Shown here: positions 24,901-61,943 of the stretch, one piece after another
Layout of the letters: every line of letters begins with the position of its first letter
How positions within the stretch are numbered: position 1 is the first letter of the stretch
NCBI GenBank assembly: GCA_973895155.1
Contig: OZ316899.1
Location: forward strand, 10,567,135 to 10,631,134
DNA: 64,000 nt
DNA from: Marsupella aquatica
Taxonomy: Eukaryota; Plantae; Marchantiophyta
Direction of reading: 5' to 3'
Made by a program: the position numbers and the translations under genes
Notes under the pieces: generated by a model
Told to the model about the DNA's origin: nothing
Database searches by the model: none
What the model saw: only the letters and a program-made list of their open reading frames with translations

Positions 24901-26571
24901 TCCTCTCGACCAACTGGATGCCTGCATATGGATTATTGCGAGTAGGCCGGCGTAACGGATTTCTCACTACATCATATGTTACTACCTCTGGCTCCTTGAT
25001 AGGGAAATGCTCTCGTTCTCATGTTGCCTATGTTACCGACCTCCTCCCGTGGCGTCGTATGTTTAGAGGCTCCTCGTCCTCCTCCACCTCCTCAAGTGGT
25101 GCAGTGATCTGCATCCGCTCCTGTATAGGCAACACTGGTGCAAAAGACTGGCTTCTTGCATATCGGCAAAGTAATTGCAGATGGTACCCTAGTCTGGATA
25201 CCGCTCCCTCCCCAATGCTTTGCTTCTCTTTGTTTAATGCCTTCTTCAACTGCATTAAGAGATAGCCGTTGTAGTCTTGGCTTGCATCGATATTCTCTAC
25301 CAAAAATACCTGGGCTTTGCCGATTTCTGCTCTCGGCAAGGTACAATGCAATGTGACTCTCAGAAAATCAATCAGCTGCCCTATATGTGGGTTGGTACAT
25401 TGATTCCTGAAAAACCCATTCTTAGTGGAAATGACCTGAACTGGTCATCCGGCAACGTCTTCCTCTGTTCCACCTTTGTCTTCCTTCCTGTTGGTAAAGC
25501 GAACACGGCTTCGATAAGCGCAGGTGTTAATTCGAACACCTTTCCATACAGCAGCGTTGTGCTGGAAGAAGCCTCCCAGCATCCCACGAAGTCCAACAGA
25601 TCCTCATCCGGTATGTCTACCATTCTCCAAGAAACCTGACAAAGCCCTCCAACCCAGTGTCATTCATATATCGTGCATATTTATTATCTTGAACGGCACT
25701 GAGGACCTCATCCTCATCTCTTGCGAACTGTAATTGTAAATCGATAGGTAACCTGTTCGCCCACCCTGTCATGTTTTTATCTTCTACAGCCCGATCTCTA
25801 ATTGGCCCGGATTCCATCTTGATTGGTCTCTCCGACCTAGTTTGCTTTGCTGGAGTTGCAGATGCCGAAACTCCCTTGCACTTCATCTCATCAGCGCCTG
25901 AATACTCCCAAGAATAGTTGCCTTCGTCCACTTTGCAGTGTGACCCTTCAATTCCCAAAGTGGTTGCCCGGCGTTCTTGATTGCCTCCCTGATCCCCACG
26001 ACCTTATTCTCCCGAATTAGCAATTCGTCAAGCTCCGCACTGGTGGGAGTCCACAAGAACTTTTCCAACACCTCCTCCGTATCTACGAATGTCGATTTGT
26101 GAATTCCCCATAATCGCGCAAGCTCTGCTCGTTCTCTGGCTGCGCACTCCGGCTCAACGTCTTCATACATAGGTATCAGCTGCCTTGCTTCTTCAAGCAA
26201 ACAACCCCAAAACTTCCCTGCCTGATTCACCGTGTTCATTCCACCGAATGCCAAGAACTTGCGCAATTTCCCAAACCACCTCCCCTGATCGATCGGCAGC
26301 TGATTCCACCTCCCTAGGTTGATCGAACAAGCAATTGCACTAGTGTACAGAGTGTCGGTCCCCTCCCTATGAAGCCGTCTCCTGATGGCTTACCTGATCA
26401 AGCCCTGATTAGGTCATAACCCTAATCCCACTTAATCGCGACCGTTGGATCAGATCCCATCACAATTTCCCCCGAACATATTGCAATCGGCCTTGATCCT
26501 TATACCTTATCTTTATTTAGCCATTATTTTAGGCTTAACTAAGTACTTCGTGATCCTGGCACGGCATCACA
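21969..26571 (-). repeat. Full-length LTR of B (4603 bp)
   Basis: TG...CA ends; PPT abuts at 26572; homologous to 42486-44435. Confidence 0.92.
22876..26266 (-). pseudogene. LTR-encoded protein of family B (frameshifted)
   Basis: Fragments 25883-26266, 25617-25958, 25381-25623, 25028-25351, 23969-24967 and 22876-23652 align in order to the A4 1210-aa protein (e.g. LPRAEIGKAQV, DYNGYLL, VSRLGYH, LQRRADNQT). Confidence 0.88.
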
Positions 26572-33198: not shown

Positions 33199-36100
33199 TG
33201 TGGTGCGTCCCATGGCTCCCTAAACCCAAGAAACCCCCCAGCTCAAGCCGATTCCCGTAGGTTTCGCGCTTGGCGAGGCCGTTTCCGCGGCTTAGCGGCA
33301 TGGGACGCTGCTAACCTTCTACTACTATTGTTAACATTTTACACACATATACTGGACAGATCCTTCATCGGGTCATGAGATACGTAGCCGGCCTAATCTA
33401 GGCCTTCCCCTGTCTTCCCCTCTGTCTTGTTAGGTATGTTTGGATTCCGCCCCCGGAATGATCCCCAATAGGCTTGGTTAAGCCGCTAAGACCTCTCTCA
33501 GCTCGACACATCCAACTCTCACTCCCCTGCTTACTTTCCTTCCTTTTGGTTGATGTGGGCACTCTTCACACAAGTTAATGCGACACACAAATAGCAAAAT
33601 GACTCATTCTGACTGAGTCATACCATGCACTTGCCATACAAACAGTACATCTCATACACAAGCTCTGCGAACTAAGCCGTGAGGCCAACTCTATTCAGCT
33701 CTTAGGCATGAGGAAACATGAATATACACAAGGGTCACTGTATGACTAACCGAGAGCTTCTCGTACTACTTGATCCCAGCCCGGCTGGTGCAAACTAAAA
33801 ACTTGCTAAAGAAGAGGCCCTGAGCTCCCCGCTGCCCAGGTACTTATCCTGGTAGTGGATCCGCCATTCTTTGCATCGTAAGCCTAATCTACCTAACAGT
33901 AATCTACTTGCCCGAATCTACCTATGTACAGCAAGGCAGGAGCACAAGTGTTGCTCCTACCAGTGGAATCGCAATCCCACTAAGCTAAGTGTCAGGGCCG
34001 CTCCTGGTCCTGATCCTAATCCTAAACTTGGAGATCAGCGCCCGCCCTGCCCACTCACGCCTCCTCCCTCCACGTCCGCCCTCCCTAAAAGGAACGGCGC
34101 CCTTGCACCGTCACGACACCGGTGGAGGATCCTTAATGGACGCCCCCAACGCTTCCTCCGTAGCCACTACCGTTGGTCTGTCCTCTGACAGATTACCTGC
34201 CTTTGACTGAGTCAACTCTCCATCGGCCTGACTGGGTCCACCATCGGCGTCGGCATCGGCTCGGGAATCGGTTACGGCCTCAGCCTCGGCTACGGTCTCC
34301 CCGGCCTGCTCAAGAGGCGGATCTGGAATACCGGCCTCATTACTGAGTAGTTCGGCTTGGGCCGCACCACCCCCACCTGTGATGATAGCGGGATCTATTG
34401 CCGTATTCATGCCGGAGGATGGTGCTGGTTCTACCTCCTTGGTCACCACGGCTTGTGGAGTCGGATTACTCCTTGACCCTGAAGGTTTCCGCTTTTTCTT
34501 CTTTTTTGGTTCGGCAGCTGGTCCCTTCCCCTTCCCACTTACTTCTGGCACTGGTGCAGGTGGCGCGGCTTTTTCTTCGGCCAGTACCACTCCTGGTAAC
34601 TTGGTTGCCCCAATTGGATTTGGGCCTGATGAAGACAAGCACTTAAATACTGCGGCTTGTTTCTTCAGCCGCTCCGTTTGGTTGTCGGCCCGCCGCTGGA
34701 GGTTCTCCATCTTCCTCGTGATTTCCTCCAACTCCTCCTGGGTCTCATCCAGGTCCTTGCGTGCCTCCTCTAGTTCCTTCTGGGCTTCCTCCCGTTCTTG
34801 TTTCAAGGTAGTCCTCTCCTCCCGGGTTGCTCTTAGCTCCTTGTCGAGCTCTGCAATGATGACAGACTCCATCTAGTTCATCTTGGTGTAAGTCTGTTCG
34901 AGCATCTCGTCCTTCTCCCTTAGGTCGGCCTTGAAGCTGGCCGTCAGGGACGCAAGCTCCTGCTGCAGCGCCATAATCCCTTGATAGGATTTCCCTAACT
35001 CGGCCTCCTTCTGCTCAAGGGCTCCACGGATTTTCTCGAGCTCCCCCTTCAACGCCCATTCCTTTCTTTGGGTCTCCGCCATGGCCTGGCTGTTGGCTGT
35101 TATGTGGGCCTCCTCTGTATTCTTCAGCTCTTGCTTCCACTTCTCCCTCTCTTTGATCGTGTCGGCCAACTCTCCCTGCGTCTGAGTCAGTTTATCCTTG
35201 ATATTCTGATTATCAGCCTGCGCGGTGTCCAACTGCCCCTGCATGATGTTCAGCTCATGCCGTTTAATCCGCAGTTCATCTTGGGCTTTCTTGGCCGCCC
35301 TTAGATCTTCAATCTCGGCTTCCATCCTCCTAAGCCGCCGAATGACCTCGTCCTTCTTGCTTCTCTCTAAAGCCACCGCTTCTTCTAATTGGTGCTTCTC
35401 CAACTGCTCCCTATGGAAAAAGGGTCCTACCTCCAACTCCTCTCCAAAGATGCCGAGCGCAAGTTCCCCACACATCTCACCATACTCCATGGCTCTATTC
35501 TTAGCGTAGGTGGAGTAAGTAGAAGTGATCGGCATCGCCCATCGCGGCCTCTGCTCCCAAGCCGTCTTGCGGATCTCTTCAATCGTGGCTAGAGGTTTGC
35601 TTCCTTTTTTGGCTAGCCGCCTGATGTCCTCCGGCCAATCTCCTCCTGGTAAATCCTTTTCCCTAGCCAGGGCTGCCTCCTCTTCCTGCCTGATTCGCTC
35701 CTGAAATTCCTGCACCGTCTGTTTTATGCCGTCGAAGCTCGGGGGAGCAACATCTGGTGGGGGAGACTCAGGGCTACTCTGCTGGTTGGGGTCCCCTCGC
35801 ACTACCCTTGGAAGTGTGGGGACAAACCGGCCACAGGTCCTTACTCCTGGAACGTGATGGTCCGACCCATAGCCGGAATTATCATGGCTGCAGTCCTCCA
35901 CTGCCTCCTCTACTTCTGGGACGTCCGGCTTCTCCCTCTCCTCTTCGTCGGTAGGAGCTTCAGGCAATTCTGCCTCAGATTCAGAGCTTGAGATTCCCAC
36001 ATACATTCGAACACCTGGCTTGGATTCCGGCCTGATTCTCTCCTTGTCTCCAGCAAAGGGGTTTTCTCTTGTGAGCCGGTGTAGGCCTACCTCTGTAGTA

Positions 36101-37860
36101 GTGTCCTGCATTGTTGCCGTTGCCGTTGTTGTTGCCGATGCCGATTTCTTTTCTTTCTCCAGTAGTTTCAGCAGACTCTGCATGCCTGGTTGCTGCATCG
36201 GCAAGTCCTCCTTCCTGGGCCTAAACACCTGCTCGATCGTAGGGCTAACAGGTGGTTGAGGCTTCTCAGCCAACGGCCTCGGCGTTGGAGCTTCCTCGGG
36301 TGCCCTTACCTGCAGGGGAAGTACTGGGGCAAAAGTCTGACCTCTGGCATACCGGCACAACAGCGGCATGTGATAGCCAAGCCGCGACACGCTCCCCATG
36401 CCGATTACCTGCTGCTCCTCCTTTAAGATCTTCTTCAATTGGTTGAGGAGGTACCCGTTGTAGTCCCGGCTTGGGTCTGGCCTTTCTGCCAAATAGACCT
36501 GTGCCTTGCCGATCTCTGCCCTCGGCAAGTTACAATGCATGGTCACCCGCAAGAAGTCGATCATCTCTCCTATGTGCGGGTTGGTGCAGGTGTTCCGGAA
36601 GAAGCCATTCTTCGTTGATGGCCCGGGGAACGACCGGAACTCCTTGTCAGGCAAGGTCTTCCTGGTATCAACTTTGGTCTTATTGCCTATCGGCAAGCCA
36701 AACACTTCGGCAATTACCTTGGGAGTAAGATAGAAATCCTTCCCATATATCCTCGTGCAATTGGTCTCGGGTTCCCATGACCCCACGAATTCTAATAGGT
36801 CTGACTCCGGTACCTCCGGCTTCAGCCATGGTAATCTTACAAAGGCCTCTAAGCCGGATCCGGCCATGAAGCCTTGGTACTTCTTGGTCTGCATGGCCGT
36901 AAAGCATGCATCCTCCTCCCGTGCAAAATGTAGTTGCACCTCCACCGGTAGGGTTGCCGCCCAGCCCTTCCAGGTGTCATCCCTGGTTGGAATGGCCTTG
37001 ATGGGATCGACCTCCTCCTCTTCGGCTTCTCCCTGCCTCCTGCTCTGCTGCTCGGCTGGCTTCTTTGGTGCCGCCGACCTCGTTCTTTTTGCCGGGGTGG
37101 CTTCATCGTTGACGGCTCCCTTCCTCTTCATCTCTGCTGCCGTGGAGGTTTCTCCTAGCACCGTTGCCTGGGTCCACCTTTCCGTGCTACCCTTTAATTC
37201 CCAGTGTATGTCGTTGCAGTTCTTGATGGCCTCTCGGATGCCGACGATGTTGTCTTTGCAAAAAGAAGATCGTCGAGTTGATTGGAAGTAGGCGTCCACA
37301 GGAACTCATCCTTGATGAGCTCGCCTCCTAAGAAAGCCGTCTTCTGCAGCTCCCACAATCGAGCGAGCTCCTGCCGTTCTCGAGCTGCCCTTTCTGATTC
37401 CTCGTCCTCGTAAGTCTTGATGTACTCAGTTGCCCGTTCGAACAGGCATCCCCAGAAATGTGCCGCTTGATTGACGTTGCTCATACCCTCCTTAGGTCGA
37501 TCGTCGGTATCTACTCTCTCCCCGAGTGCTTGCCTAAGCAGCTGACAGTAGTTGGCCTCCCGTAGTCGTCTGCCTAGTTCGTGCTCGCAAATGAGCCACC
37601 ATCTCCTGCAAGCGCTCCTTACCCCTCTCTTCTGCCGGTCCTTCTTCCCGTTGATCCTTCCTAGCCGCCGACGCTTAACGCGCCCTAACCCTAATCAAGT
37701 TTTCACCCTCAGCGTCCTTACCTCCGGCCTCGGCCCGGGTTCCATGGTTGCCCCTAATGGTTTATATTTTCCTTGTTTTGTCCCTATACTAAGGTGTTCC
37801 TAGGGTGCCTTCCTGCTTTACCCACTTAACTGGCCGAGTGATTCCTGTCTAGGCATCACA
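33199..37860 (-). mobile_element. Solo LTR A3 (4662 bp), inserted in A2
   Basis: TSD TGTTG at 33194-33198 and 37861-37865; near-identical to A4. Confidence 0.95.
34111..37484 (-). pseudogene. LTR-encoded protein of A3 (one frameshift near 37264, one CAG>TAG at 34873)
   Basis: Direct comparison with the intact A4 ORF. Confidence 0.9.
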
Positions 37861-40725
37861 TGTTGGTTGCTAAGTGGGCCTCCTCTGCATCCCTTAGCTC
37901 TCGCTTCCATTTCTCTCTTTCCTTGACTGCGCCGGCCAACTCTCCTTGGGTCCGAGTCAGTTTATCTTTGATAATCTGATTGTCAGACTGAGCGGTATCC
38001 AACTGCCCCTTCATGATGTTTAGCTCATGCCGCTTAATCCGCAGCTCATCTTGGGCTTTCTTGGCCACCTGCAGGACTTCCACCTTGGCTTCCTTCTCCC
38101 TAAGTCGTCGGATGACCTCGTCCTTCTTGCTTCTCTCCAAAGCCACCGCTTCTTCTAATCGGTGCTTTTCCAACATCTCCCTCTGGAAAAAGGGTCCCTG
38201 CTCCAACTCCTCCCCAAAGATGCTGAGCGCCAGGTCCCCACACATCTCCCCGTACTCCATGACTCTATCCTTAGCATAGGTGGAGTAACTAGAAGTCATC
38301 GGTATCAACCACCGCGGCCTCTGCTCCCAAGCGGCCCTGCGGATTTCTTCTATGGTGGCAAGAGGGTTGCTTCTTTTTTCGGCAAGCTGCCTGATGTCCT
38401 CCGACCAATCTCCTCCTGGTAAATCTTTCTCTCTAGCCAAGGCTGCTTTCTCTTCCTCCCTAAGTCGCTCCTGAAAATCTTGTGCCGTCTGCTTTATGCC
38501 GTCAAAGCTCGGGGGAGCAACCTCTGGTGGGGGAAACTCGGGGCTACTCTGCTGGGTGGGGTCCCCTCAAACTACTCTTGGAAGCGTGGGGATAAATCGG
38601 CCACAGGTCCTTACTCCTGGAACATGATGATCCGACCCATAGCCGGAGTTATCATTGTTGTAGTCCTCCACCGCCTCCTCCACTACTTGGACTCCCGGCT
38701 TCTCCCTTTGTTCCCCTGGTCCTGTCGTGAAAACGGCCTTACAGATCACGGGCTCTGGTTCCTCTGGTTTCCAGGCTGTTGTCTCCCTATGCTCTCCGCG
38801 GGAAGGAGCCTTAGGCTGCTCTGCCTCTGATTCGGGGCTTGAGGCTCCCACGTACATTCCCACTCCCGGCTTGTGTTCCGGCCTAAATCTCTCCTTGGTT
38901 CCGGTAAAGGGGTCTTCCCTTCTGAGTTGGCTTAGGCCGACCTCTGGGGCAGCGTCCTGTATTGGTGCCGTTGCCGTTGCCGGAACCAGTGCTGGTGCCG
39001 TTCTCTTTTCTTTCTCCAACAATTTCAGCAGATTTTTCATGCCTGGTTGCTGCATCGGCAAGTCTTCTTTCCTTGGCCGAAACACCTGCTCGATCGTCAG
39101 ACTGTCGGGCTGGTTGGGCTTCTCTGGTGCCGGCCCCTGCTCCGGAACCTCCTCCGGTGCCCTTGCCAATAGGGGAAGTACTGGGGCAAAGATTTGACTT
39201 TTGGCATACCGGCACAACAGCGGCATGTGATAGCCAAGCCGGGACACGCTTCCCACGCCGATCACCTGTTGTTCCTCCTTCAAGATTTTCTTCAGTTGGT
39301 TGAGGAGGTACCCGTTGTAATCCTGGCTTGGGTCTGGCCTTTCTGCCAGGTAGATCTGAGCCTTGCCAATCTCTGCCCTCGGCAAGTTACAATGCATGGT
39401 CACCCGCAAGAAATCGATCATCTCTCCGATGTGTGGGTTGGTGCAGGTGTTCCGGAAGAAGCCATTCTTCGTTGATGGTCCTGGGAATGACTGGAACTCC
39501 TTGTCAAGTAAGGTCTTCCTGGTATCAACCTTGGTCTTATTACCCATCGGCAAGCCAAACACCTCAGCAATCACTCGGGGAGTGAGATAGAAATCCTTCC
39601 CATACACCCTCGTGGAATTGGTCTCGGGTTCCCATGATCCCATGAATTCTAATAAGTCTGAGTCCGGCACCTCCGGCTTCATCCATGGTAATCTTACGAA
39701 GGCTTCCAAGCCGGATCCGGCCATGAAGCCCTGGTACTTCTTGGTCTGCATGGCCGTAAAGCATGCATCCTCCTCCCGTGCAAAGTGTAATTGCACTTCC
39801 TCCGGTAGGGTCACCGTCCAGTCTTTCTAGGTGTCATCATTTGTTGGAATGGCATTGATGGGATTGACCTCTTCCTCTTCGGCTTCTCCCTTTGTCCTGC
39901 TCTGCTGCTTTGCTGGCTTCCTAGGTGCCGCCGACCTCGTTCTTTTTTGTCGGGGTGGCCTCTTCGTTGTTGTTTCCTTTCCTCTTCATCTTGGCTGCCG
40001 TGGATGTTTCTCCTAGCAAGGTTGCCTTCGTCCACCCCTCCGTGTTACCCTTCAACTCCCAGTGTAGGTTGTTGCAGCGATTGATGGCTCCCCGGATGCC
40101 GATGATTCTGTCTTTGCAAAACAGAAGGTCATCGAGCTGATTAGCAGTAGGAGTCCACAAGAACTCGGCCTTGATGAGTTCTCCTCCTAAGAAGGCAAAC
40201 TTCTGTAGCTCCCACAGTCGAGCGAGCTCCTGCCATTCTCGAGCTGCTCTCTCCGATTCTTCGTCCTTGTAAGTCCTGACGTACTCACCTGCCCGTTTGA
40301 ACAGGCATCCCCAAAAATATGCCGCCTGATTGACGTTGCTCATACCCTCCTTGAGTCGATCGTTGGTATCTGTTCCCACCCCGAGTGCTTGCCTAAGCAG
40401 CTAACAGCATTTGGCCTCCCGTAGTCGTCTGCCCAGTTCGTTCTTGCAAATGAGCCACTATTCCTCGCGAGCGGTCCTTACCCCTCTCCTCCTCTGGTCT
40501 TCCCTCCCGTTGGTCACCCCTAGCCGCCGACGCTTAGCGCGCCCTAACCCTAATTGTGTTCTCTCCCCCAACGTCTTTACTTCCGGCCTCGGCCCGGGTT
40601 CCATAGTCACCCTTAATTGTTTATATTTTCCTTGTTTTTGTTCCTATACTAAGGTGTTTCCAGGGTACACTCCTGCTTTACCATGTAAACCGGCCTAGTG
40701 ATTCCTGGCTAGGCATCACACACGG

Positions 40726-42425
40726 TAACAATCAGCATCAACATCTTCTTCGGAACAAGTGGACAGGGCGTCTGCTTCATTGTCAGAAGGTGCAAATTCT
40801 CCTCGTGCTTTTTCACGCCATCCTAAGTCAATATGATTCACCTGGGCTCCTCCCGGCATAGTTCCTGCTGGTAATACCTTTGGTGTGGCTTTGACAGGTA
40901 CAGCAGCCATCCCGGCTAACCAAATAGGGCATTGGGTAAGTATATGCCCTTCTCCTTTGCAACCCATACAAATCTTGACTAGCTGACCATCCACCTGCTT
41001 CCTTGCATTGGTGCACTCCCGGGAGAAGTGACCTGGTTGACCGCAGTTGTAGCATGCTGCAAAACTCTGAACATTTGGTTATGGAGGTGTAGTTGGATTT
41101 TGAATGATGCGGGGATACATCTCCCCTGCATTGGTTCTCAACGCTCCCCACAAGGAAGTGGGTCGGTTAGCCAAATCTTGGGCTCCGGCCTCACTAATGC
41201 CGAACACACTATCCGCGGCATCTCCAAGTATGTACTCCACCTCAAACTCCCCTATTGTTCCATTGGTTATCAATCGAACATGCTTTGTACAGAAATCCTT
41301 ATGATGTCCGGTGGTATAACAGTGAGCGCACCATACTGAGGTGTCATCGGCTGCCTCCTTCTCCACCGGCTTTGCGTTGGCTAATAATGCCTTCAGCTGC
41401 TCTGTGATAGTTGTTAACTGATCCGGAGATGCTTTCTTGGGATCCAACTTGGTTTTCACCTTTTCTGCAACCCTCTCTTTCTTTGTGATTTTCTTTTTCT
41501 TGCTCCTGTCACCATCCTCCGAGCTGGAAGATGTTTCACTCTTACTGGTATCACTCTCAGAGCTACTACTCTCCTCCTTGGCTTTCTTGGATCACTTCTT
41601 CTTGGCCTTTTTCTTGCCGGATTCCTCCTCTAAAGATGAATCCTCAGACTTATAGTGCTTTTTCCGGCTTGTGACATCAGCATTGATGTATAACTGAATA
41701 TCACAAATCACCTCTGCTAAAGACTCCAGATTCCCCTTCCTAATTGCGAAACTCATCTTCTGAGGTAGAGCATTAACCAACCACTGCAACTGCATCTCGT
41801 CTGATGCATTGGTCTTGGTTCGTCGCACCAATTTGTGGAATCGCTGCAAGAATTTTTGGAAAGACTTGTTCTCCTTGAATTGAAGCCGTCCTAGCTTCAA
41901 CATTGCCAATTCAGACGTCCCAATGGGACGGAATTCCTTGACAAATAGCTGCTTGAAGGTGACCCATTCATTCTGCTCCCCTGGTTCCAAATTGGAATAC
42001 CATGGTCGAGCCTCACCCTTAAACAACCCAGGTAGGATCTGCATCTTAATAGCGGACTCTCCATTAGCAGTTGCAGTCCCATCAAACTCCTCTAGCCAGT
42101 CATCCGGATCCTCCTCATGTTTACCATGGAATGCTTTGTAAAGGATTCGTGATCTCTGACTGAGCCGTGGTGCTGCTCGCCCACCAAATTGTGGATCCGG
42201 CTCACCCATCTCTTGCACTGGTGAACTGGGTTGGGTACTGGGCGCATTACTACTCAACAGATCCCCTTCCACGGTTTCCAGTTCCACTCCAAAAGTACTT
42301 CGTGAACCGCCGTTGTCGATTGCAGTCTTCACCCTCTTTGACTCTTTCCACCTCGCAATTTGTTGCAACCGTGCTTCTTCCCTTAGTGTTGCTCGCTCTT
42401 CTCGTGGTGTGAATTCATTCATCAC
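40726..42425 (-). pseudogene. gag: gag of B with three CCHC knuckles
   Basis: FHGKHEEDPDDWL..F, GEARPWY...W..FK..F capsid motifs; CAHCYTTGHHKDFC, CYNCGQPGHFSREC, CMGCKGEGHILTQC; internal stops. Confidence 0.88.
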
Positions 42426-42463
42426 CTAACTCTGCGCAACAAACAATTCACAAGTAAGAATGC

Positions 42464-42481
42464 CCCCTCCATCTAGCGCCA
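42464..42481 (-). promoter_or_regulatory. Primer-binding site of B, complementary to tRNA-Asn(GTT)
   Basis: TGGCGCTAGATGGAGGGG 4 nt after the 5' LTR; one mismatch to the plant tRNA-Asn 3' end CCCCTCCTTCTAGCGCCA (recalled sequence). Confidence 0.75.
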
Positions 42482-42485
42482 AAAA

Positions 42486-44435
42486 TGTGGCACGTTTCCC
42501 AAGATCTCTAACCCCAAGAACTACCCTCAACCGATCATAAACCACTTGTTTATGTCCGTCCTCTTGCCTTATGGCAGCTATTCGGCTTGGAAACATGATA
42601 CTCTCCTTTGATCCACACTTACCGGACCGATTCTTTCACTGGGCTTGTGAATTGTGCACAACTGAGACACCTAATTCCTCTTTAACTTCTTCAGGTATAT
42701 TTGTATTCTGCCCCCGGAATGTACCTCTACGGCTTAATTTCTTAAGCCGGCTGAAGGTCTTTTTCAGACTGACTCAACCCACACTTCACCGACTAACACT
42801 CTCAATCCTCACTTTTCTCTCAGAGTTTGATTGGGCAGTTTCCAATCAAGACAATGCAATTGTATTTTGCTCAACAGTTCACCCTATCTGACTTAAATCG
42901 ATCAAGCAACAAATATCATAACACTCAATTTCTTGGATGGCAAGAATCTGCGAACTATGCAACGAGGCCAACTCAATTCAAACAATTGCTCAGAAATCCA
43001 AGGGAACTGGTGGTTTACTGATACCCTGCGGTCTAGATTTAGCCGAGAGCTTCCTGTGCTCACAACAATACAGATTAACACTAAAGCCTTGACTAAGAAA
43101 AAGCCCCCGAAGCCACGCTGCCCAGGTTTTTATCCTTGCAGCGCGTCTAGGGAAAAACAACGGAAATCCTAACCACCACACACGGCCTTCCACCGCGATA
43201 ATCCTACCAAAAAACTATCACCTAAAAACTTGAATAGCCCGGAACCCTGTGTGAACCAAGCATCTACTACTACCTAAGCCGACAGGGCGCTACTTGCCCT
43301 GTCCCATCCTTCAACGGCCGCGCCCTTCTGGCCCAAGCCTTTCTCCTGCCGCCACGTCCTCCTTCCAACCGATGACTGGCCCTCCTTAATTGTCAGATGG
43401 CCGGGGGTAAGTCCGAATCTTCCGACTCTGCACCTTCTCTTGCCATCGGCCCTGGCCAACAGATCCTCATCCGATATGTCTACCATTCTCCAGGACAACC
43501 TGACAAAGCCCTCCAACCCAATGTCATTCATATATCCTGCATATTTATTATCTTGAACGGCACTGAAGACCTCATTCTCATCTCTTGCGAACTGTAATTG
43601 TAAATCGACAGGTAACCTGTTCGCCCACCCTGTCATGTTTTTATCTTCTACAGTCCGATCTCTAATTGGCCAGGATTCCATCTTGATTGGTCTCTCCGAC
43701 CTAGTTTGCTTTGCTGGAGTTGTAGATGCCGAAACTCCCTTGCGCTTCATCTCCTCAGTGCCTGAATACTCCCCAAGAATAGCTGCCTTTGTCCACTTTG
43801 CAGTGTGACCCTTCAATTCCCAAAGTGGTTGCCCGACGTTCTTGATTGCCTCCCTGATCCCCACGACCTTATTCTCCCAAATTAGCAATCATCAAGCTCC
43901 GCACTGGTGGGTGTCCACGAGAACTTTTCCAACACCTCCTCCGTATCTACGAATGCCGATTTTTGAATTCCCCACAATCGCGCAAGCTCTGCTCGTTCTC
44001 TGGCTGCGCGCTCCGGCTCAACGTCTTCATACGTAGGTATCAGCTGCCTTGCTTCTTCAAGCAAACAGCCCCAAAACTTCCCTGCTTGATTCACCGTGTT
44101 CATTCCACCAAATGCCAAGAACTTGCGCAGTTTCCCAAACCACCTCCCCCGATCGATCGGCAGCTGATTCCACCTCCCTAGGTTGATCGAACAAGCAATT
44201 GCACTAGTGTATAGAGTGTCGGTCCCCTCCCTACGAAGCCGCCTCCTAATGGCTTACCTGATCAAGCTCTGATTAGGTCACAACCCTAATCCCACTTAAT
44301 CGCGACTGTTGGATCAGATCCCATCACAATTTCCCCTGAACATATTGCAATCGGCCTCGATCCTTATACCTAATCTTTATTTAGCCATTATTTTAGGCTT
44401 AACTAAGTACTTTGTGATCCTGGCACGACATCACA
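42486..44435 (-). repeat. 5' LTR of B (1950 bp; ~2.65 kb internal deletion at 43457 removes most of the LTR ORF)
   Basis: Junction joins sequence equivalent to 22940 with 25595 over a CC microhomology. Confidence 0.9.
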
Positions 44436-44440
44436 TTGCA

Positions 44441-46700
44441 CGCCTCCTCCCGCTCCTTCTGCGCTTCCTCCAACTCTCTCTGGGCTTCCTCAAGCTTCTT
44501 TTTTAAGGTAGCCCTCTCTTCCTGGGTTGCTCTTAGCTCCTTGTTGAGCTCTGTTACAACCTCAAACTCCATTTTATTCATCTTGGTATAAGTCTGGTCG
44601 AGCTGGTTGTCTTTCTCATGGAGGTCGGCCTTGAAGCTGGCCGTCATGGATGCAAGCTCCTGTCGTAGCACAATGATCGCCTAATAGGATTTTCCTAACT
44701 CGGCCTCCTTCTGCTCAAGGGCTCTACGGATATCCTCAAGCTCCCCCTTCAACGCCCTCTCCCTTCTTTGGGTCTCTGCCATGGCCCGGTTGTTGGCTGC
44801 TATGTGGGCCTCCTCTGCGTCTCTCAACTCTCGCTTCCACTTCTCCTTCTCCTTGATTGCATCGGCCAACTCTCCTTGGGTCCGAGTTAGTTTATCCTTG
44901 ATAATCTGATTATCAGACTGCGCAGTATCCAATTGCCCCTGCATGATGTTTAGCTCATGCCGCTTAATCCGTAGCTCATCTTGGGCTTTCTTGGCCGCCT
45001 TCAGGTCTTCTACCTTGGCTTCTCTTGCCCTAAGCCGACGGATGACCTCGTCCTTCTTGCTTCTTTCCAAAGCCACCGCTTCTTCCAATCGGCGTTTCTC
45101 CAACATCTCCCTCTAGAAAAAGGGTCCCTGCTCCAACTCCTCCCCAAAGATGCTGAGCGCAAGTTCCCCACACATCTCCCCGTACTCCATGGCTCTTTCT
45201 TTAGCATAGGCGGAGTGAGTAGAAGTCATCGGCATCACCCATTGCGGCCTTTGTTCCCAAGCCGCCTTGCGGATTTCTTCTATCGTGGCTGGAGGGCTGC
45301 TTTGTTTTTCTGCAAGCCGCTTGATGTGCTCTGGCCATTCTCCCCCTAGTAAATCTTTCTTTCCTTCTCCAGCAATTTCAGCAGATTCTGCATGCTTGGT
45401 TGCTGCATCGGCAAGTCCTCCTTCCTCGGCCTAAACACCTGCTCGATTGTAGGACTGTCGGGCTGGGTCGGTTTCTCTGTTGCCGGCCTCAGTTCCGGAA
45501 CCTCATCTGGTGCACTTGCGTGCAAGGGAAGTACCGGGGTGAATATCTGACTTCGGGCATACCGGCACAACAGTGGCATATGATAGCCAAGCCGGGACAT
45601 GCTTCCCTTGCCGATCACCTGCTGTTCCTCCTTCAAGATTTTCTTCAATTGGGTGAGGAGGTATCCGTTGTAGTCCCGGTTGGGGTCTGGCCTCTCCGCC
45701 AGGTAAACCTGTGCCTTGCCGATCTTTGGCCTCGGCAAGTTGCAGTGCATGGTTACCTGCAAGAAATTGATTATCTCTCCTATGTGCGGGTTGGTGCAGG
45801 TGGTCCGAAAAAAACCATTCTTCGTTGATGGCCTTGGGAACGATTGGAACTCCTTGTCTAGCAAGGTCTTCCGGGTATCTACTTTGGTCTTATTGCCCGT
45901 CGGCAAGCCAAACACTTCGGCAATCACTCGGGGAGTGAGATAGAATTCTTTCCCATACACCCTTGTGGAATTGGTCTCAGGCTCCCAAGATGCCACGAAT
46001 TCTAATAAGTCTGAATCCGGCACCTCTGGCTTCAGCCATGGTAACTTTACAAAGGCTTCCAAGCCGGATCCGGCCATGAAGCCCTGGTACTTCCGAGTCT
46101 GCATAGCCGTAAAGCATGCATCCTCTTCGCGTGCAAAGTGTAATTGCACTTCCTCAAGGAGGGTCACCGCCCAGCCTTTCGAGGTGTCATCCCTTGTTGG
46201 AACAACATTAGTGGGGTCGACCTCCTCTTCGTTGGCTTCTTCTTGCCTCTTGCTCCCTTGCTTGGCTGGCTTCCTTGGTGCCGCCGACCTCGTTCTCTTC
46301 GCAGGGGTGGTCTCTTCATTGATGTTCCCTTTCCTCTTCATAGTGGCTACCGTGGATGTTTCTCCTAGCACGGTTGCCTTTGTCCACCCCTCCGTGCTAC
46401 CCTTCAACTCCCAGTGTATGTCGTTGCAGTGGTTGATGGCCTCCTGGATGCCGACTATTCTGTTCTCACAAAACAGAAGATCGTCGAGTTTGTTGGCAGT
46501 AGGCGTCCACAAGAATTCAGCCGTAATGAGTTCTCCTCCTAAGAAGGCACACTTCTATAGCTCCCACAGTCGAGCGAGCTCCCACCGTTCCCGAGCGGCT
46601 CTCTCCGATTCTTCGTCCTCGTAGGTCCCAATGTACTCAGTTGCCTATTCTAACAGGCATCCCCAAAAATGAGCGCTTGATTGACGTTGCTTATACCCTT
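44441..46700 (-). pseudogene. N-terminal and central part of the LTR-encoded protein in A1
   Basis: ORFs 45346-46512, 44681-45106 and 44399-44671 match the A4 protein. Confidence 0.85.
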
Positions 46701-47075
46701 CTTGCGTTGATTGTCGGTATCTGCTTCCACCCCGAGTGCTTGCCTGAGCAGCGGACAGTAGTTGGCCTCCCGTAGTCGTCTACTTAGTTCGCGCTTGCAA
46801 ATGAGCCGACATTCCTTGCGATCAATCCTTACCCCTCCCTGGCTGGTCTTCCTTCCCATTAGTTACCTATAGCCGTCGGCACTTAGTGCGCCCTAACCCT
46901 AATCGTGTTCCCTCCCCCGACGGTTTTACTCCCGGTCTCGGCTCGGGTTCCATAGCCACCCTTAATTGTTTATATTTTCCATATTTTTGCTACTACACTA
47001 ATGTGTTTCCAGGGTTTACTCCTTATTTTATCATTTAAACTAGCCTAGTGATTCCTGGCTAGGCATCACAAGGTT

Positions 47076-57274: not shown

Positions 57275-60200
57275 TGTGGTGCGTCCCATGGCTCCCTAAA
57301 CCCAAGAAACCCCCCAGCTCAAGCCGATTCCCGCGGGTTTCGCGCTTGGCGAGGCCGTTTCCGCGGCTTAGCGGCATGGGACGCTGCTAACCTTCTACTA
57401 CTACTATTAACATTTTACACACATATACTGGACAGATCCTTCATCGGGTCATGAGATACGTAGCCGGCCTAATCTAGGCCTTCCCCTGTCTTCCCCTGTC
57501 TTCCCCTCCGTCTTGTTAGGTATGTTTGGATTCCGCCACCGGAATGATCCCCAATAGGCTTGGTTAAGCCGCTAAGACCTCTCTCAGCTCGACACATCCA
57601 ACTCTCACTCCCCTGCTTACTTTCCTTCCTTTGGTTGATGTGGGCACTCTTCACACAAGTTAATGCGACACACAAATAGCAAAATGACTCATTCTGACTG
57701 AGTCATACCATGCACTTGCCATACAAACAGTACATCTCATACACAAGTTCTGCGAACTAAGCCGTGAGGCCAACTCTATTCAGCTCTTAGGCATGAGGAA
57801 ACATGAATATACACAAGGGTCACTGTATGACTAACCGAGAGCTTCTCGTACTACTTGATCCCAGCCCGGCTGGTGCAAACTAAAAACTTGCTAAAGAAGA
57901 GGCCCTGAGCTCCCCGCTGCCCAGGTACTTATCCTGGTAGTGGATCCGCCATTCTTTGCATTGTAAGCCTAATCTACTTAACAGTAATCTACTTGCCCGA
58001 ATCTACCTATGTACAGCAAGGCAGGAGCACAAGTGTTGCTCCTACCAGTGGGACCGCAATCCCACTAAGCTAAGTGTCAGGGCCGCTCCTGGTTCTGATC
58101 CTAATCCTAAACGTGGAGATCCGCACCCGCCCTGCCCACTCACGCCTCCTCCCTCCACGTCCGCCCTCCCTAAAAGGAACGGCGCCCTTGCACCGTCACG
58201 ACACCGGTGGTGGATCCTTAATGGACGCCCCCAACGCTTCCTCCTCAGCCACTGCCGTAGGCTCATTCCCTGACAGATTACCTGCCCTTGACTGAGTCAA
58301 CTCTCCATCAGCCTGACTGGGTCCACCATCGGCGTCAGCATCGGCTCGAGAATCGGTTACGGCCTCAGCCTCGGCTACGGTCTCCCCGGCCTGCTCAAGA
58401 GGCGGATCTGGAATACCGGCCTCCTTACTGAGTAGTTCGGCTTGGGCCGCACCACCCCCACCTGTGATCATAGCGGGATCTATTGCCGTATTCATGTCGA
58501 AGGATGGTGCTGGTTCTACCTCTTTGGTCACCACGGCTTGTGGAGTCGGATTACTCCTTGACCCTGAAGGTTTCCGCTTTTTCTTCTTTTCTGGTTCGGC
58601 AGCTGGTCCCTTCCCCTTCCCACTTACCTCCGGCACTGGTGCAGTTGGCGCGGCTTTTTCTTCGGCCAGTACCACTCCTGGTAACTTGGTTGCCCCAATT
58701 GGAGTTGGGCCTGATGAAGACAAGCACTTAAATACTGCGGCTTGTTTCTTCAGCCGCTCCGTTTGGTTGTCGGCCCGCCGCTGGAGGTTCTCCATCTTCC
58801 TCGTGATTTCCTCCAACTCCTCCTGGGTCTCATCCAGGTCCTTGCGTGCCTCCTCTAGTTCCTTCTGGGCTTCCTCCCGTTCTTGTTTCAAGGTAGTCCT
58901 CTCCTCCTGGGTTGCTTTTAGCTCCTTGTCGAGCTCTGCAATGATGACAGACTCCATCTGGTTCATCTTGGCGTAAGTCTGTTCGAGCATCTCCTCCCTC
59001 TCCCTTAGGTCGGCCTTGAAGCTGGCCGTCAGGGACGCAAGCTCCTGCTGCAGCGCCATAATCCCTTGATAGGATTTCCCTAACTCGGCCTCCTTCTGCT
59101 CAAGGGCTCCGCGGATTTTCTCGAGCTCCCCTTTCAACGCCCATTCCTTTCTTTGGGTCTCCGCCATGGCCCGGTTGTTGGCTGTTATGTGGGCCTCCTC
59201 TGTATTCTTCAGCTCTTGCTTCCACTTCTCCCTCTCTTTGATCGTGTCGGCCAACTCTCCCTGCGTCTGAGTCAGTTTATCCTTGATATTCTGATTATCA
59301 GCCTGCGCGGTGTCCAACTGCCCCTGCATGATGTTCAGCTCATGTCGTTTAATCCGCAGTTCATCTTGGGCTTTCTTGGCCGCCCTTAGATCTTCAATCT
59401 CGGCTTCCATCCTCCTAAGCCGCCGAATGACCTCGTCCTTCTTGCTTCTCTCTAAAGCCACCGCTTCTTCTAATTGGTGCTTCTCCAACTGCTCCCTATG
59501 GAAAAAGGGTCCTACCTCCAACTCTTCTCCAAAGATGCCGAGCGCAAGTTCCCCACACATCTCACCATACTCCATGGCTCTATTCTTAGCGTAGGTGGAG
59601 TAAGTAGAAGTGATCGGCATCGCCCATCGTGGCCTCTGCTCCCAAGCCGTCCTGCGGATCTCTTCAATCGTGGCTAGAGGTTTGCTTCCTTTTTTGGCTA
59701 GCCGCCTGATGTCCTCCGGCCAATCTCCTCCTGGTAAATCCTTTTCCTTAGCCAGGGCTGCCTCCTCCTCCTGCTTGATTCGCTCTTGAAATTCCTGCAC
59801 CGTCTGTTTTATGCCGTCGAAGCTCGGGGGAGCAACATCTGGTGGGGGAGACTCAGGGCTACTCTGCTGGTTGGGGTCCCCTCGCACTACCCTTGGAAGT
59901 GTGGGGACAAACCGGCCACAGGTCCTTACTCCTGGAACGTGATGGTCCGACCCATAGCCGGAATTATCATGGCTGCAGTCCTCCACTGCCTCCTCTACCT
60001 CTTGGACGTCCGGCTTCTCCCTCTCCTCTTCGTCGGTAGGAGCTTCAGGCAATTCTGCCTCAGATTCGGAGCTTGAGGTTCCCACGTACATTCGAACACC
60101 TGGCTTGGATTCCGGCCTGATTCTCTCCTTGTCTCCAGCAAAGGGGTTTTCTCTTGTGAGCCGGTGTAGGCCTACCTCTGTAGTAGTGTCCTGCATTGTT

Positions 60201-61943
60201 GCCGTTGCCGTTGTTGTTGCCGATGCCGATTTCTTTTCTTTCTCCAGTAGTTTTAGCAGACTCTGCATGCCTGGTTGCTGCATCGGCAAGTCCTCCTTCC
60301 TGGGCCTAAACACCTGCTCGATCGTAGGGCTAACAGGTGGTTGAGGCTTCTCAGCCAACGGCCTCGGCGTTGGAGCTTCCTCGGGTGCCCTTACCTGTAG
60401 GGGAAGTACCGGGGCAAAAGTCTGACCTCTGGCATACCGGCACAACAGCGGCATGTGATAGCCAAGCCGCGACACGCTCCCCATGCCGATTACCTGCTGC
60501 TCCTCCTTTAAGATCTTCTTCAATTGGTTGAGGAGGTACCCGTTGTAGTCCCGGCTTGGGTCTGGCCTTTCTGCCAGATAGACCTGTGCCTTGCCGATCT
60601 CTGCCCTCGGCAAGTTACAATGCATGGTCACCCGCAAGAAGTCGATCATCTCTCCTATGTGCGGGTTGGTGCAGGTGTTCCGGAAGAAGCCATTCTTCGT
60701 TGATGGCCCGGGGAACGACCGGAACTCCTTGTCAGGCAAGGTCTTCCTGGTATCAACTTTGGTCTTATTGCCTATCGGCAAGCCAAACACTTCGGCAATT
60801 ACCTTGGGAGTAAGATAGAAATCCTTCCCATATATCCTCGTGCAATTGGTCTCGGGTTCCCATGACCCCACGAATTCTAATAGGTCTGACTCCGGTACCT
60901 CCGGCTTCAGCCATGGTAATCTTACAAAGGCCTCTAAGCCGGATCCGGCCATGAAGCCTTGATACTTCTTGGTCTGCATGGCCGTAAAGCATGCATCCTC
61001 CTCCCGTGCAAAATGTAGTTGCACCTCCACCGGTAGGGTTGCCGCCCAGCCCTTCCAGGTGTCATCCCTGGTTGGAATGGCCTTGATGGGATCGACCTCC
61101 TCCTCTTCGGCTTCTCCCTGCCTCCTGCTCTGCTGCTCGGCTGGCTTCTTTGGTGTCGCCGACCTCGTTCTTTTTGCCGGGGTGGCTTCATCGTTGACGG
61201 CTCCCTTCCTCTTCATCTTTGCTGCCGTGGAGGTTTCTCCTAGCACCGTTGCCTGGGTCCACCTTTCCGTGCTTCCCTTTAATTCCCAGTGTATGTCGTT
61301 GCAGTTCTTGATGGCCTCTCGGATGCCGACGACGCTGTCTTTGCAAAACAGAAGATCGTCGAGTTGATTGGAAGTAGGCGTCCACAGGAACTCGTCCTTG
61401 ATGAGTTTGCCTCCTAAGAAAGCCGTCTTCTGCAGCTCCCACAATCGAGCGAGCTCCTGCCGTTCTCGAGCTGCCCTTTCTGATTCCTCGTCCTCGTAAG
61501 TCTTGATGTACTCAGTTGCCCGTTCGAACAGGCATCCCCAGAAATGTGCCGCTTGATTGACGTTGCTCATACCCTCCTTAGGTCGATCGTCGGTATCTAC
61601 TCTCTCCCCGAGTGCTTGCCTAAGCAGCTGACAGTAGTTGGCCTCCCGTAGTCGTCTGCCTAGTTCGTGCTCGCAAATGAGCCACCATCTCCTGCAAGCG
61701 CTCCTTACCCCTCTCCTCTGCCGGTCCTTCTTCCCGTTGATCCTTCCTAGCCGCCGACGCTTAACGCGCCCTAACCCTAATCGGGTTTTCACCCTCAGCC
61801 TTACCTCCGGCCTCGGCCCGGGTTCCATGGTTGCCCCTAATTGTTTATATTTTCCTTGTTTTGTCCCTATACTAAGGTGTTCCTAGGGTGCCTTCCTGCT
61901 TTACCCACTTAACCGGCCGAGTGATTCCTGTCTAGGCATCACA
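57275..61943 (-). mobile_element. Solo LTR A4 (4669 bp), inserted in CACTA-2
   Basis: TGTGGTGC...GCATCACA; TSD AACTC at 57270-57274 and 61944-61948. Confidence 0.95.
58196..61828 (-). CDS. Intact LTR-encoded protein (1210 codons; the conserved start is more likely MSNVNQ at 61570): PMD/Transposase_32-like core, acidic/Pro linker, long coiled coil, KKKKRK NLS
   Basis: Uninterrupted ORF; homologues in five other LTR copies from two families. Confidence 0.85.
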   Translation of the reverse strand: MEPGPRPEVRLRVKTRLGLGRVKRRRLGRINGKKDRQRRGVRSACRRWWLICEHELGRRLREANYCQLLRQALGERVDTDDRPKEGMSNVNQAAHFWGCLFERATEYIKTYEDEESERAARERQELARLWELQKTAFLGGKLIKDEFLWTPTSNQLDDLLFCKDSVVGIREAIKNCNDIHWELKGSTERWTQATVLGETSTAAKMKRKGAVNDEATPAKRTRSATPKKPAEQQSRRQGEAEEEEVDPIKAIPTRDDTWKGWAATLPVEVQLHFAREEDACFTAMQTKKYQGFMAGSGLEAFVRLPWLKPEVPESDLLEFVGSWEPETNCTRIYGKDFYLTPKVIAEVFGLPIGNKTKVDTRKTLPDKEFRSFPGPSTKNGFFRNTCTNPHIGEMIDFLRVTMHCNLPRAEIGKAQVYLAERPDPSRDYNGYLLNQLKKILKEEQQVIGMGSVSRLGYHMPLLCRYARGQTFAPVLPLQVRAPEEAPTPRPLAEKPQPPVSPTIEQVFRPRKEDLPMQQPGMQSLLKLLEKEKKSASATTTATATMQDTTTEVGLHRLTRENPFAGDKERIRPESKPGVRMYVGTSSSESEAELPEAPTDEEEREKPDVQEVEEAVEDCSHDNSGYGSDHHVPGVRTCGRFVPTLPRVVRGDPNQQSSPESPPPDVAPPSFDGIKQTVQEFQERIKQEEEAALAKEKDLPGGDWPEDIRRLAKKGSKPLATIEEIRRTAWEQRPRWAMPITSTYSTYAKNRAMEYGEMCGELALGIFGEELEVGPFFHREQLEKHQLEEAVALERSKKDEVIRRLRRMEAEIEDLRAAKKAQDELRIKRHELNIMQGQLDTAQADNQNIKDKLTQTQGELADTIKEREKWKQELKNTEEAHITANNRAMAETQRKEWALKGELEKIRGALEQKEAELGKSYQGIMALQQELASLTASFKADLREREEMLEQTYAKMNQMESVIIAELDKELKATQEERTTLKQEREEAQKELEEARKDLDETQEELEEITRKMENLQRRADNQTERLKKQAAVFKCLSSSGPTPIGATKLPGVVLAEEKAAPTAPVPEVSGKGKGPAAEPEKKKKRKPSGSRSNPTPQAVVTKEVEPAPSFDMNTAIDPAMITGGGGAAQAELLSKEAGIPDPPLEQAGETVAEAEAVTDSRADADADGGPSQADGELTQSRAGNLSGNEPTAVAEEEALGASIKDPPPVS

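Follow-up and report, generated by a model that had tools for sequence, protein, structure and literature searches.

A Gene Maintained by Selection within the LTRs of a Liverwort Gypsy Family and Its Possible Role against Host Silencing

Introduction

What is a long terminal repeat (LTR) doing with a gene of its own? The question is raised by a repeat in the liverwort Marsupella aquatica. Solo LTRs are usually regarded as inert scars, and annotation of transposable element (TE) proteins passes over them, yet the repeat considered here, which we call A1, holds a whole 3.4-kb gene. A preliminary description, made from the sequence, took the architecture to be undescribed, and our literature search likewise found no description of it. 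Two wider matters bear on the locus: what the extra open reading frames (ORFs) of plant gypsy elements do has been asked for a long time, and anti-silencing of a sequence-specific kind has so far been shown for the VANC proteins of Mutator-like elements.

Results

A1 Is a Solo LTR with Relatives Nearby

The window analyzed is a stretch of 64,000 nucleotides of contig OZ316899.1. A1 has TG..CA termini and is flanked by a 5-bp target duplication, AACTC, at 57270-57274 and 61944-61948; we read it as the solo LTR of a Ty3/gypsy element outside the chromoviruses. The window also contains three sister copies and a related element, family B:

57275..61943, minus strand: solo LTR A1, 4,669 bp
33199..37860, minus strand: solo LTR A2, lying within A3 and flanked by duplication TGTTG, 98.3% identical, its gene broken by a frameshift and stops
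31296..40720, minus strand: solo LTR A3, about 85% identical, split by A2, inserted in the gag of B, gene broken, duplication CACGG
3851..47070 (pieces 3851-5388 and 44441-47070), minus strand: solo LTR A4/A5, about 82% identical, internally deleted and interrupted by element B, with duplication AGGTT
21969..26571, minus strand: family B LTR, 4,603 bp, with a homologous but broken gene; polypurine tract (PPT) directly upstream at 26572-26584, primer-binding site (PBS) directly downstream
26539..42422, minus strand: family B gag (41592-42422 and 30311-30988) and pol (26962-29637, tail 26539-26961)
42486..44435, minus strand: family B 5' LTR, internally deleted, in which the gene's N-terminal part is still present; its PBS lies at about 42464-42481

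Each of the four A copies has its own 5-bp duplication, all four are solo, and only in A1 is the gene unbroken among the copies in the window. The preliminary description had called the unit an LTR with a sense ORF. The copy is a solo one, and with no family A internal region in the window the labels "LTR" and "sense" come from the homologous family B. They also draw on PBS-like loose ends that adjoin A termini in two (X6 and X4) of four runs examined out of 16. These resemble the PBS and leader of B at 19/30 positions each, the best or tied-best match in the window; on the PPT side the match was 16/30, a level reached by 99 of 127,940 positions.

Family B is a full gypsy element, with gag, reverse transcriptase, RNase H and integrase, that would measure about 15.7 kb with two full LTRs. 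Its units run in the order PPT-LTR-PBS, the LTR gene is in the sense of gag-pol, and the tail of pol ends 33 nt inside the LTR. The B gene is 31-58% identical to the A1 protein over residues 86-1028 (tblastn). A 5-bp duplication and the lack of both an archaeal RNase H and a chromodomain are traits shared with the Athila lineage. That lineage would further be marked by a tRNA-Asp/Asn primer; the PBS of B may be tRNA-Asn-like. The Phygy lineage, whose elements have a 4-bp NCGN duplication, lack an extra ORF and measure 7.7-10 kb, does not fit the 5-bp duplications, the extra ORF and the length of about 15.7 kb. In a pol tree built without lineage references, from which 9 of the 30 chosen rows were dropped for short coverage, B fell beside Calypogeia fissa (100/99), and their clade was separate from the angiosperm rows.

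The Gene Is under Purifying Selection from Met87 Onward

The preliminary description had reported an intact gene of some 1,200 codons filling 78% of the LTR. Indeed, a single ORF of 1,210 codons (58196..61828, minus strand) occupies 77.8% of A1, but its first 86 codons do not behave as protein-coding sequence: dN/dS was 1.43 against A3 and 0.92 against A4, with low dS, and there are stops in A2, A3 and A4. Codons 87-1210, by contrast, gave 0.27 against A3, 0.23 against A4/5 and 0.34 against A2 (bootstrap ranges, 0.22-0.33 and 0.19-0.29), well away from the value near 1 that the preliminary description had named as contrary evidence. The ratio fell to 0.12-0.13 in residues 256-480, the core, and was 0.20-0.24 in a coiled-coil-like region farther on. 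Because selection covers codons 87-1210 and not 1-86, the protein is likely to be 1,124 residues long (72% of the unit), and these comparisons show that the LTR-borne gene has been kept by selection. The features of the unit are as follows:

61845..61850, minus strand: TATA-like ATATAA (LTR nt 94-99), by sequence pattern a candidate promoter for the gene
61571..61828, minus strand: codons 1-86, open in A1, likely promoter or leader
58196..61570, minus strand: likely true gene, Met87 to stop, judged by dN/dS and a matching Met in family B
61163..61213, minus strand: bipartite nuclear localization signal (NLS)-like stretch, residues 206-222, by pattern scan; A4 and B each have a comparable basic stretch
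60389..61081, minus strand: globular core, residues 250-480, with a predicted VANC21-like fold (AF2 model)
58712..59491, minus strand: long coiled-coil-like region, about residues 780-1039, by a simple heptad score and weak coiled-coil Pfam rows
58574..58588, minus strand: second NLS-like stretch, residues 1081-1085, by pattern scan
57275..58195, minus strand: non-coding LTR end, 921 bp, likely the element's promoter, R and U5
57321..61425, both strands: 18 dispersed AAGCCG sites, candidate target word, 14 in the gene and 4 in the non-coding end

The core motifs quoted in the preliminary description are present in the ORF, and the coiled coil of about 250 residues and the NLS that it had noticed correspond to the heptad-rich region and the two basic stretches. 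It had also held that the protein is not env-like. No transmembrane segment was found (the highest 19-residue hydropathy was 0.82), which speaks against an env-like ORF. The LTR gene is a real, selected accessory gene of non-env type with a probably nuclear product, and, as had been proposed, it survives solo-LTR formation, the whole ORF being present in A1.

The Core Is Predicted to Resemble VANC21

An AF2 model of the core reached a pLDDT of 88.9 and a pTM of 0.85 (an earlier model from 6 rows, pLDDT 38.8, was unusable). The homologue alignment comprised 36 matches less P0125 (a tandem-repeat false hit), P0129, P0144, P0150, P0153 and P0154. All relatives that bear names are from the liverwort Calypogeia fissa, CAM6090539.1 and CAM6082161.1 among them, and the arrangement of core plus coiled coil recurs in the distant homologues P0150, P0163 and P0165. 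Compared with 48,161 solved chains (VIA), the model matched VANC21 at Z 8.5, the next at 2.0, and just two chains reached Z 2, with the tool's warning that for helical proteins a Z below about 13 can reflect a common arrangement. The superposition aligned 204-206 residues at an rmsd of 4.1-5.0 and 8-11% identity. Foldseek, which had been suggested as a check, likewise placed VANC21 first, at a TM of 0.47 against 0.16 or less in the other listed rows, but with a weak E-value of 0.96.

The preliminary description had likened the core by eye to PMD and Transposase_32 domains. As a remote kinship this is supported by the modeled fold and by the leads in the Atlas (DUF1985, 0.89; PMD, 0.88), since VANC is described as carrying DUF1985 and binding short family-specific motifs (PMC5735166) and PMD-C is reported to resemble the DUF1985 of VANC (10.1101/2024.09.27.615353; PMC13547354). 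Membership in the Pfam sense did not hold up: a scan of the core at E<=10 gave no match to DUF1985 (PF09331), DUF287, PMD (PF10536) or Transposase_32 (PF20167). Transposase_32 was touched by one of the 36 homologues, at E 0.006, below the Pfam gathering cut-off, and a profile of the core against two Transposase_32 proteins was not significant (E 0.22 and 0.28). No match to the core came from a sequence-profile search among solved structures or, at E<=0.001, from a viral structure library, and residues 87-209 had no usable match in the Atlas. Word-based searches with the core returned nothing at the lengths covered (154-492 and 665-2118), and scans of metagenome and viral contigs for homologue loci gave none that was useful, L001 being only 32% identical.

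A Hexamer Is Dispersed throughout the A and B Elements

AAGCCG ranks first among 2,080 hexamers in the A1 LTR, in the B LTR and in the unrelated gag-pol of B. A1 has 18 sites against 5.2 in codon shuffles. Out of sample, the B LTR has 15 against 3.7 and the B internal region 13 against 2.6, each above all 100 simulations, and within gag and pol of B there are 11 against 2.3 under synonymous shuffling (p 0.0002). The A and B sequences account for 94 of the 98 matches in the window, the other 4 lying in the roughly 31.5 kb outside them. Single sites are kept only slightly better than other CG hexamers (9/18 versus 0.40; 8/17 versus 0.34). The sites form no tandem array, 14 of the 18 in A1 being coding, and a motif search restricted to non-coding parts of the LTR, ATTAGG included, was negative.

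Together, the VANC21-like fold and the element-wide word suggest an anti-silencing role, lending that option specific support. The reading that we favor, at about even odds (roughly 0.48), is that the LTR gene encodes a protein with a predicted VANC21-like core that would probably bind AAGCCG across the element and so protect the family against silencing by the host. Transcription of the gene, read from Met87, would start from a promoter within the LTR's first ~370 nt; the product, predicted to enter the nucleus and to oligomerize through its coiled coil, would bind the dispersed CG-containing word in all copies of the family; and binding would reduce methylation of the DNA, or Polycomb marks, at these copies, much as VANC21 acts on VANDAL21. 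The gene would have reached U3 once plus-strand synthesis began at a PPT lying upstream of a 3' extra ORF, in sense orientation and of Athila type. A solo LTR retains gene, promoter and target words as one unit, so that young ones such as A1 could act in trans. The broader proposition, that this is sequence-specific anti-silencing encoded by a retrotransposon, with a VANC-fold protein and a private word housed in the LTR and each young solo LTR a complete trans-acting cassette, is more tentative, and we would not yet bet on it.

Alternative Readings

The same DNA-binding accessory factor could instead trans-activate the LTR promoter or anchor the integration complex on family DNA rich in AAGCCG. 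Fold, NLS and word can be cited for this too, accessory ORFs have been proposed to work in the manner of retroviral regulators (PMC7264820), and targeting would suit the nesting of insertions within one lineage (A2 in A3, A3 in B, and B in A4/5). The AAGCCG sites, however, are spread over gag, pol and the gene with no cluster at a promoter, A1 and A4/5 are inserted in sequence lacking the word, and the sole solved look-alike is an anti-silencing factor. We consider this alternative unlikely, if a serious one.

A second alternative concerns where in the LTR the gene lies. If the element had no promoter other than the TATA-like motif at nt 94 of the LTR, the gene would belong to R or U5 rather than U3 and would head the genomic RNA, as do the 5' extra ORFs of Ogre and Retrosat2; such ORFs are reported to be common (PMC6317226; PMC3485330). 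ATATAA is the sole TATA-like match in A1 and is found in all four A copies, but B does not have the same match. The arrangement would, moreover, require about 4.5 kb of minus-strand strong-stop DNA and translation of gag behind a 3.4-kb ORF. The 921-nt end, meanwhile, is more conserved than synonymous sites (divergence 0.09-0.12 versus dS of 0.4-0.5; identity 80-98% per 50 nt) and so resembles a promoter-R-U5 segment, and pol abuts the LTR at the place of Athila's 3' extra ORF region. We therefore hold this placement to be rather unlikely.

Third, AAGCCG may be unconnected with the LTR gene, being a host-factor site or a context that escapes both methylation and decay, with the protein serving some other role. 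GCCG is enriched overall in A and B (11.8 versus 2.4 per kb), with AG, AT, TT and TA prefixes as well, and gypsy C, which has no such gene in the part examined, carries its own, less pronounced CG word, GCGAGA (p 0.08). C is also close to B in the CpG level of pol (0.60 versus 0.58), so that neither words nor CpG retention are unique to elements with the LTR gene. Against this, a genome-wide methylation blind spot should appear in C, D and the CACTA elements, where it is absent, and element D, which has the PPT of B and a pol 53-72% identical to B's, has 0 sites. The bases 3' of AAGCCG lack the preference for CC of a GCC box (C in 7/46). On balance, an unrelated word seems quite unlikely. The observed/expected CpG ratio was 0.68-0.71 in the A and B LTRs and 0.24-0.32 in CACTA and flanks; we do not use it as support, because CpG is similar in B and C pol and is confounded by age.

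Finally, that family A units move as LTR-only units using B-type enzymes would fit the solo state of every A copy in the window but is very improbable, since long LTRs recombine readily and there seem to be A LTRs with an internal region attached, the X6 and X4 loose ends resembling the PBS and leader of B.

Discussion

If the shielding model is right, the host's main route of retrotransposon deletion leaves a counter-defense gene behind, and VANC-type function extends beyond eudicot Mutator elements to bryophyte gypsies. With a VANC-like protein and its candidate target word both coming from a single retrotransposon, the question of anti-silencing is directly testable.

Accessory genes in or overlapping the U3 of an LTR are familiar from retroviruses, as in MMTV sag and HIV nef. 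These are far shorter and encode unrelated proteins that act on host cells rather than on chromatin. Among plant elements, the rice Retrosat2/RIRE3 elements resemble A and B, by description, in the length of their LTRs (above 3 kb) and in having an extra ORF, but their ORF0 is a separate ORF upstream of gag-pol in a different lineage (PMC3485330).

Closer are the extra ORFs of OTA gypsies, described as PMD in Ogre, ORF1/Transposase_32 in Athila and Transposase_28 in Retand (PMC6317226, PMC7264820, PMC11963269, PMC11728184). Like A and B, their carriers are non-chromoviruses whose accessory ORF falls in the PMD-like group and has an NLS and a coiled coil; in the pol relative P0091, Transposase_32 plus a coiled coil lie downstream of integrase. 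The OTA ORFs are reported to sit internally, on the 5' or the 3' side of gag-pol, whereas the A/B gene lies inside the LTR and is present twice per element and in solo LTRs, and there is no 3' internal region.

The host PMD-C proteins MAIN, MAIL1 and MAIL2 would belong with the LTR protein to one structural family by way of the DUF1985 of VANC, and PMD-C proteins are described as forming protein-DNA motif modules that oppose Polycomb silencing (PMC5418596; 10.1101/2024.09.27.615353). They are, however, products of angiosperm host genes, with no sequence-level match to the LTR protein.

The nearest parallel is VANC21 of Arabidopsis VANDAL21 (PMC5735166; PDB 9LNK/9LNJ). It too is encoded by a TE and has a coiled coil, the LTR protein is predicted to share its nuclear location and to have a similar fold, and in both cases a short family-specific word accumulates in the cognate element. 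VANC21 is a DNA-binding demethylation factor, and the A1 protein is likened to it by predicted fold and word. VANC proteins carry DUF1985 and DUF287, neither of which is a Pfam match in the LTR protein, and are borne by Mutator-like DNA transposons and termed dicot-specific (PMC13547354), whereas the A1 gene lies in a gypsy LTR. The motifs of VANC21, as reported, form tandem arrays in non-coding DNA (PMC5735166), whereas the candidate word of A1 and B is a dispersed hexamer written into codons.

An Intact Gene within a Solo LTR

The analysis covered the window together with four sequencing runs and protein databases. Its subject is A1, a solo LTR of which, as the preliminary description had claimed for 78% of its 4,669 bp, one intact sense ORF takes up most of the length (77.8% as measured). 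The LTR identity of the A1-type unit is settled by family B, a related gypsy element whose LTR lies directly between a polypurine tract (before) and a primer-binding site (after), and whose homologue of the gene is 31-58% identical to the A1 protein across residues 86-1028. Self-comparison of the window revealed three further copies beside A1, none of which has an internal region and each of which is flanked by a 5-bp duplication of its own.

Family A units and family B LTRs in the window
57275-61943: A1, solo LTR, 4,669 bp, 5' TG and 3' CA, AACTC flanking both sides
58196..61828, minus strand: open frame in A1, 1,210 codons, unbroken
33199-37860: A2, 98.3% identity to A1
31296-40720: A3, interrupted by A2
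3851-5388 and 44441-47070: A4/A5
21969-26571: B LTR, 4,603 bp, termini similar to those of A, broken homologue of the LTR gene
42486-44435: second B LTR copy, internally deleted, preceding gag and pol

The LTR gene is real. Over codons 87-1210, dN/dS lies at 0.23-0.34 rather than near 1 (0.27 against A3, bootstrap 0.22-0.33; 0.23 against A4/5, 0.19-0.29; 0.34 against A2), and in the core, at codons 256-480, it falls to 0.12 and 0.13 against A3 and A4/5. For codons 1-86 the ratios are 1.43 and 0.92 at low dS, other copies have stops in this part, and family B has a methionine at the position matching Met87. Thus, of the ~1,200-residue gene first described, the 1,210-codon ORF is indeed intact, but its first 86 codons are not under selection and Met87 is the likely start. 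Selection between copies mirrors active ancestors and need not apply to the solo copy; A1 is the only copy in the window in which the gene is unbroken. Residues 87-204 (61202-61570) and ~690-790 (~59300-59960), both on the minus strand, are further conserved regions that family B has as well and that are under purifying selection; neither has a Pfam match, and residues 87-204 also have no Atlas match.

A Core with a Predicted VANC21-Like Fold

The nuclear localization signal, coiled coil and lack of an obvious transmembrane segment noted earlier were borne out: NLS-like stretches lie at residues 206-222 and 1081-1085, a heptad-rich region spans residues ~780-1039, and no transmembrane segment was found in the LTR protein (maximum hydropathy 0.82). 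The proposed likeness to PMD/Transposase_32 fared unevenly, in that the protein has no Pfam match to PMD, Transposase_32 or DUF1985, whereas Atlas gave leads to DUF1985 (0.89) and PMD (0.88, 14% of members), both under 0.9, and the fold comparison pointed to VANC21, the anti-silencing protein of VANDAL21. Searching 1.84 billion representatives with a profile returned 36 matches at E<=0.001, one of them a repeat artefact; one match reaches Transposase_32 (E 0.006), and among 20 looked up, the eight bearing a species name were all from Calypogeia fissa.

The core, the globular part of the protein, was modeled confidently from 36 rows (pLDDT 88.9, pTM 0.85). Only two of 48,161 solved chains reached Z 2 against it, VANC21 at 8.5 and an unrelated design at 2.0. 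The VANC21 match, to a structure bound to its own target DNA, covers 204 residues at an rmsd of 4.1 and 9% identity, and a repeat comparison agreed. Foldseek likewise placed VANC21 first (TM 0.47 versus <=0.16 for others, E 0.96). Among helical domains a Z of 8.5 ranks as middling; it carries weight because it is the sole high match, covers nearly the whole domain and agrees with the DUF1985 lead.

We tentatively propose, with a probability of about 0.48, that the LTR encodes an AAGCCG-binding, VANC-like anti-silencing factor. Its own LTR promoter would drive the gene; the protein would enter the nucleus, oligomerize through its coiled coil and bind AAGCCG across family copies; silencing marks would be reduced, as by VANC; and solo LTRs would retain the complete cassette. 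That the protein is instead a trans-activator or an integration tether is somewhat unlikely: the NLS-like stretches and the DNA-bound match would suit such roles too, and it is the resemblance to VANC21 in particular that favors anti-silencing.

As to origin, P0091, an angiosperm pol relative, has, downstream of integrase, both Transposase_32 and a coiled coil. The top profile alignment of the core lands in this part of P0091 without reaching significance (E 0.22), and a second profile comparison also missed. The layout of P0091 and the position of this alignment hint, but do not demonstrate, that the LTR captured a 3' sense extra ORF.

Placement of the Gene in the LTR

A TATA-like ATATAA at LTR nucleotide 94 is common to all four A copies, and a transcript starting ~30 nucleotides past it would bypass Met1. 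Were this box the element's sole promoter, the gene would lie in R/U5, an arrangement compatible with either function that we consider unlikely. The 921-nucleotide non-coding LTR end diverges far less (0.09-0.12) than synonymous sites (dS 0.4-0.5), as would be expected of promoter, R and U5, and is consistent with a gene in U3.

AAGCCG as a Candidate Target Word

The short motif to which VANC21 binds builds up in the element that encodes it (PMC5735166, in the part available). A motif search restricted to the non-coding LTR parts found none. An element-wide search of A1 over 20 word shapes yielded AAGCCG, which was tested afterwards on other sequence. It occurs 18 times in A1 versus 5.2 in codon shuffles (z 5.5; null maximum 4.1 in 20 shuffles). 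Among 2,080 hexamers it ranks first in A2, A4/5, B's LTR (15 versus 3.7) and B's non-homologous interior (13 versus 2.6), 7th in A3 and 5th in B's deleted LTR; in the CACTA stretches and in the neighboring gypsies C and D its rank lies between 854th and 1,932nd. In A1 and in both the LTR and the interior of B, counts exceeded 100 of 100 simulations; the gag and pol frames of B hold 11 versus 2.3 under synonymous shuffling (p 0.0002), and 94 of 98 window matches lie within A or B. Both strands carry the word, irregularly spaced and amid a looser family of GCCG words; in older copies it is frequently lost through G-to-A at the CG.

Three observations count against a target word. The sites lie scattered instead of forming tandem arrays, individual sites are preserved only slightly better than other hexamers containing CG, and gypsy C has its own, weaker word (GCGAGA, 13 versus 3.7, p 0.08). 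That AAGCCG has no connection with the LTR gene we consider unlikely.

Gypsy C (1000-3850 and 47071-50681, plus strand, LTR ~810 bp) is the site of the A4/5 insertion, and its pol is distant from B's (23% identity). Gypsy D (50682-53400) shares B's polypurine tract, with 53-72% pol identity, no AAGCCG and 17 nucleotides of LTR visible; its word CGGGTA is not significant.

Family A Copies and the Lineage of Family B

It is very improbable that family A is an LTR-only mobile unit, as copies without internal regions might suggest, for loose ends at the A terminus agree with B's primer-binding site and leader in 19 of 30 letters in each of two sequencing runs (X6 and X4). For X6 the two primer-binding sites outscore every other position on the plus strand of the window; for X4 there is a tie among 4 of 127,940 positions. 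On the polypurine side the match is unconvincing, at 16 of 30 letters, a score that 99 positions equal. The family is highly repeated, since the A1 stretch is present in at least 14 sequencing runs from several organisms and two runs hold 15,583 and 27,283 contigs with family sequence, figures that are not copy numbers. The surroundings of A1 (53401-57274 and 61944-64000) are CpG-poor and CACTA-like, with a DUF4218 ORF at 62910-63824, and are repeated in their own right in the sequencing runs.

In its RT-RNase H, B shares 67-68% identity with proteins of C. fissa and 54-59% with those of Riccia sorocarpa, and B groups with C. fissa (support 100/99; 22-row tree without lineage references, nine rows dropped), which makes a leafy liverwort the probable host. 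Pfam found no chromodomain or extra RNase H in B. B matches Athila in duplication length; Phygy was ruled out, having a 4-bp NCGN duplication and no extra ORF (PMC6317226, supplement file 3, as far as available).

Same-lineage nesting spans 3851-47070 (A2 within A3, A3 within B, B within A4/5). A second primer-binding site and leader follow B's 3' LTR (21908-21968), and 5389-5519 is the end of a third LTR; B has the look of an element with three LTRs in tandem, split by a CACTA insertion. Its duplication reads TTGCG/TTGCA, and its LTR differences amount to 1.75% at one end compared with 4.3% at the opposite end. The CACTA-type element (5520-21907), nested in B, starts with CACTA and has Tnp2-like and DUF4218-like ORFs; its opposite end is not evident.

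Other features inside the CACTA element
14297-15145: ORF with two BRCT domains
15739-16419: NSD-like PHD fingers
13587-14120: weak F-box

Comparison with Known Systems

As the preliminary description held, extra ORFs of plant gypsies normally lie in the internal region, 5' or 3' of gag-pol, in the available portions of published surveys, which also report that Ogre carries PMD and that LTRs reach ~5 kb (PMC6317226, PMC7264820, PMC11963269, PMC11728184, PMC3485330). A liverwort genome paper, where accessible, lists lineages and nothing more (PMC12885004). The literature searched, which took in few subscription papers, Repbase entries or bioRxiv supplements, yielded no plant element with an LTR-internal gene, in line with the earlier statement that no such description was known, and no VANC-like retrotransposon system; the sole phrase match, in the text available, was a host gene within a maize element (PMC1560396). 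VANC is described, in the sections available, as structurally like MAIN/PMD-C and as dicot-specific, and TE-borne PMDs are proposed there, not demonstrated, as anti-silencers (PMC13547354, PMC5418596, 10.1101/2024.09.27.615353). The LTR protein would work as VANC does, yet is not itself a VANC.
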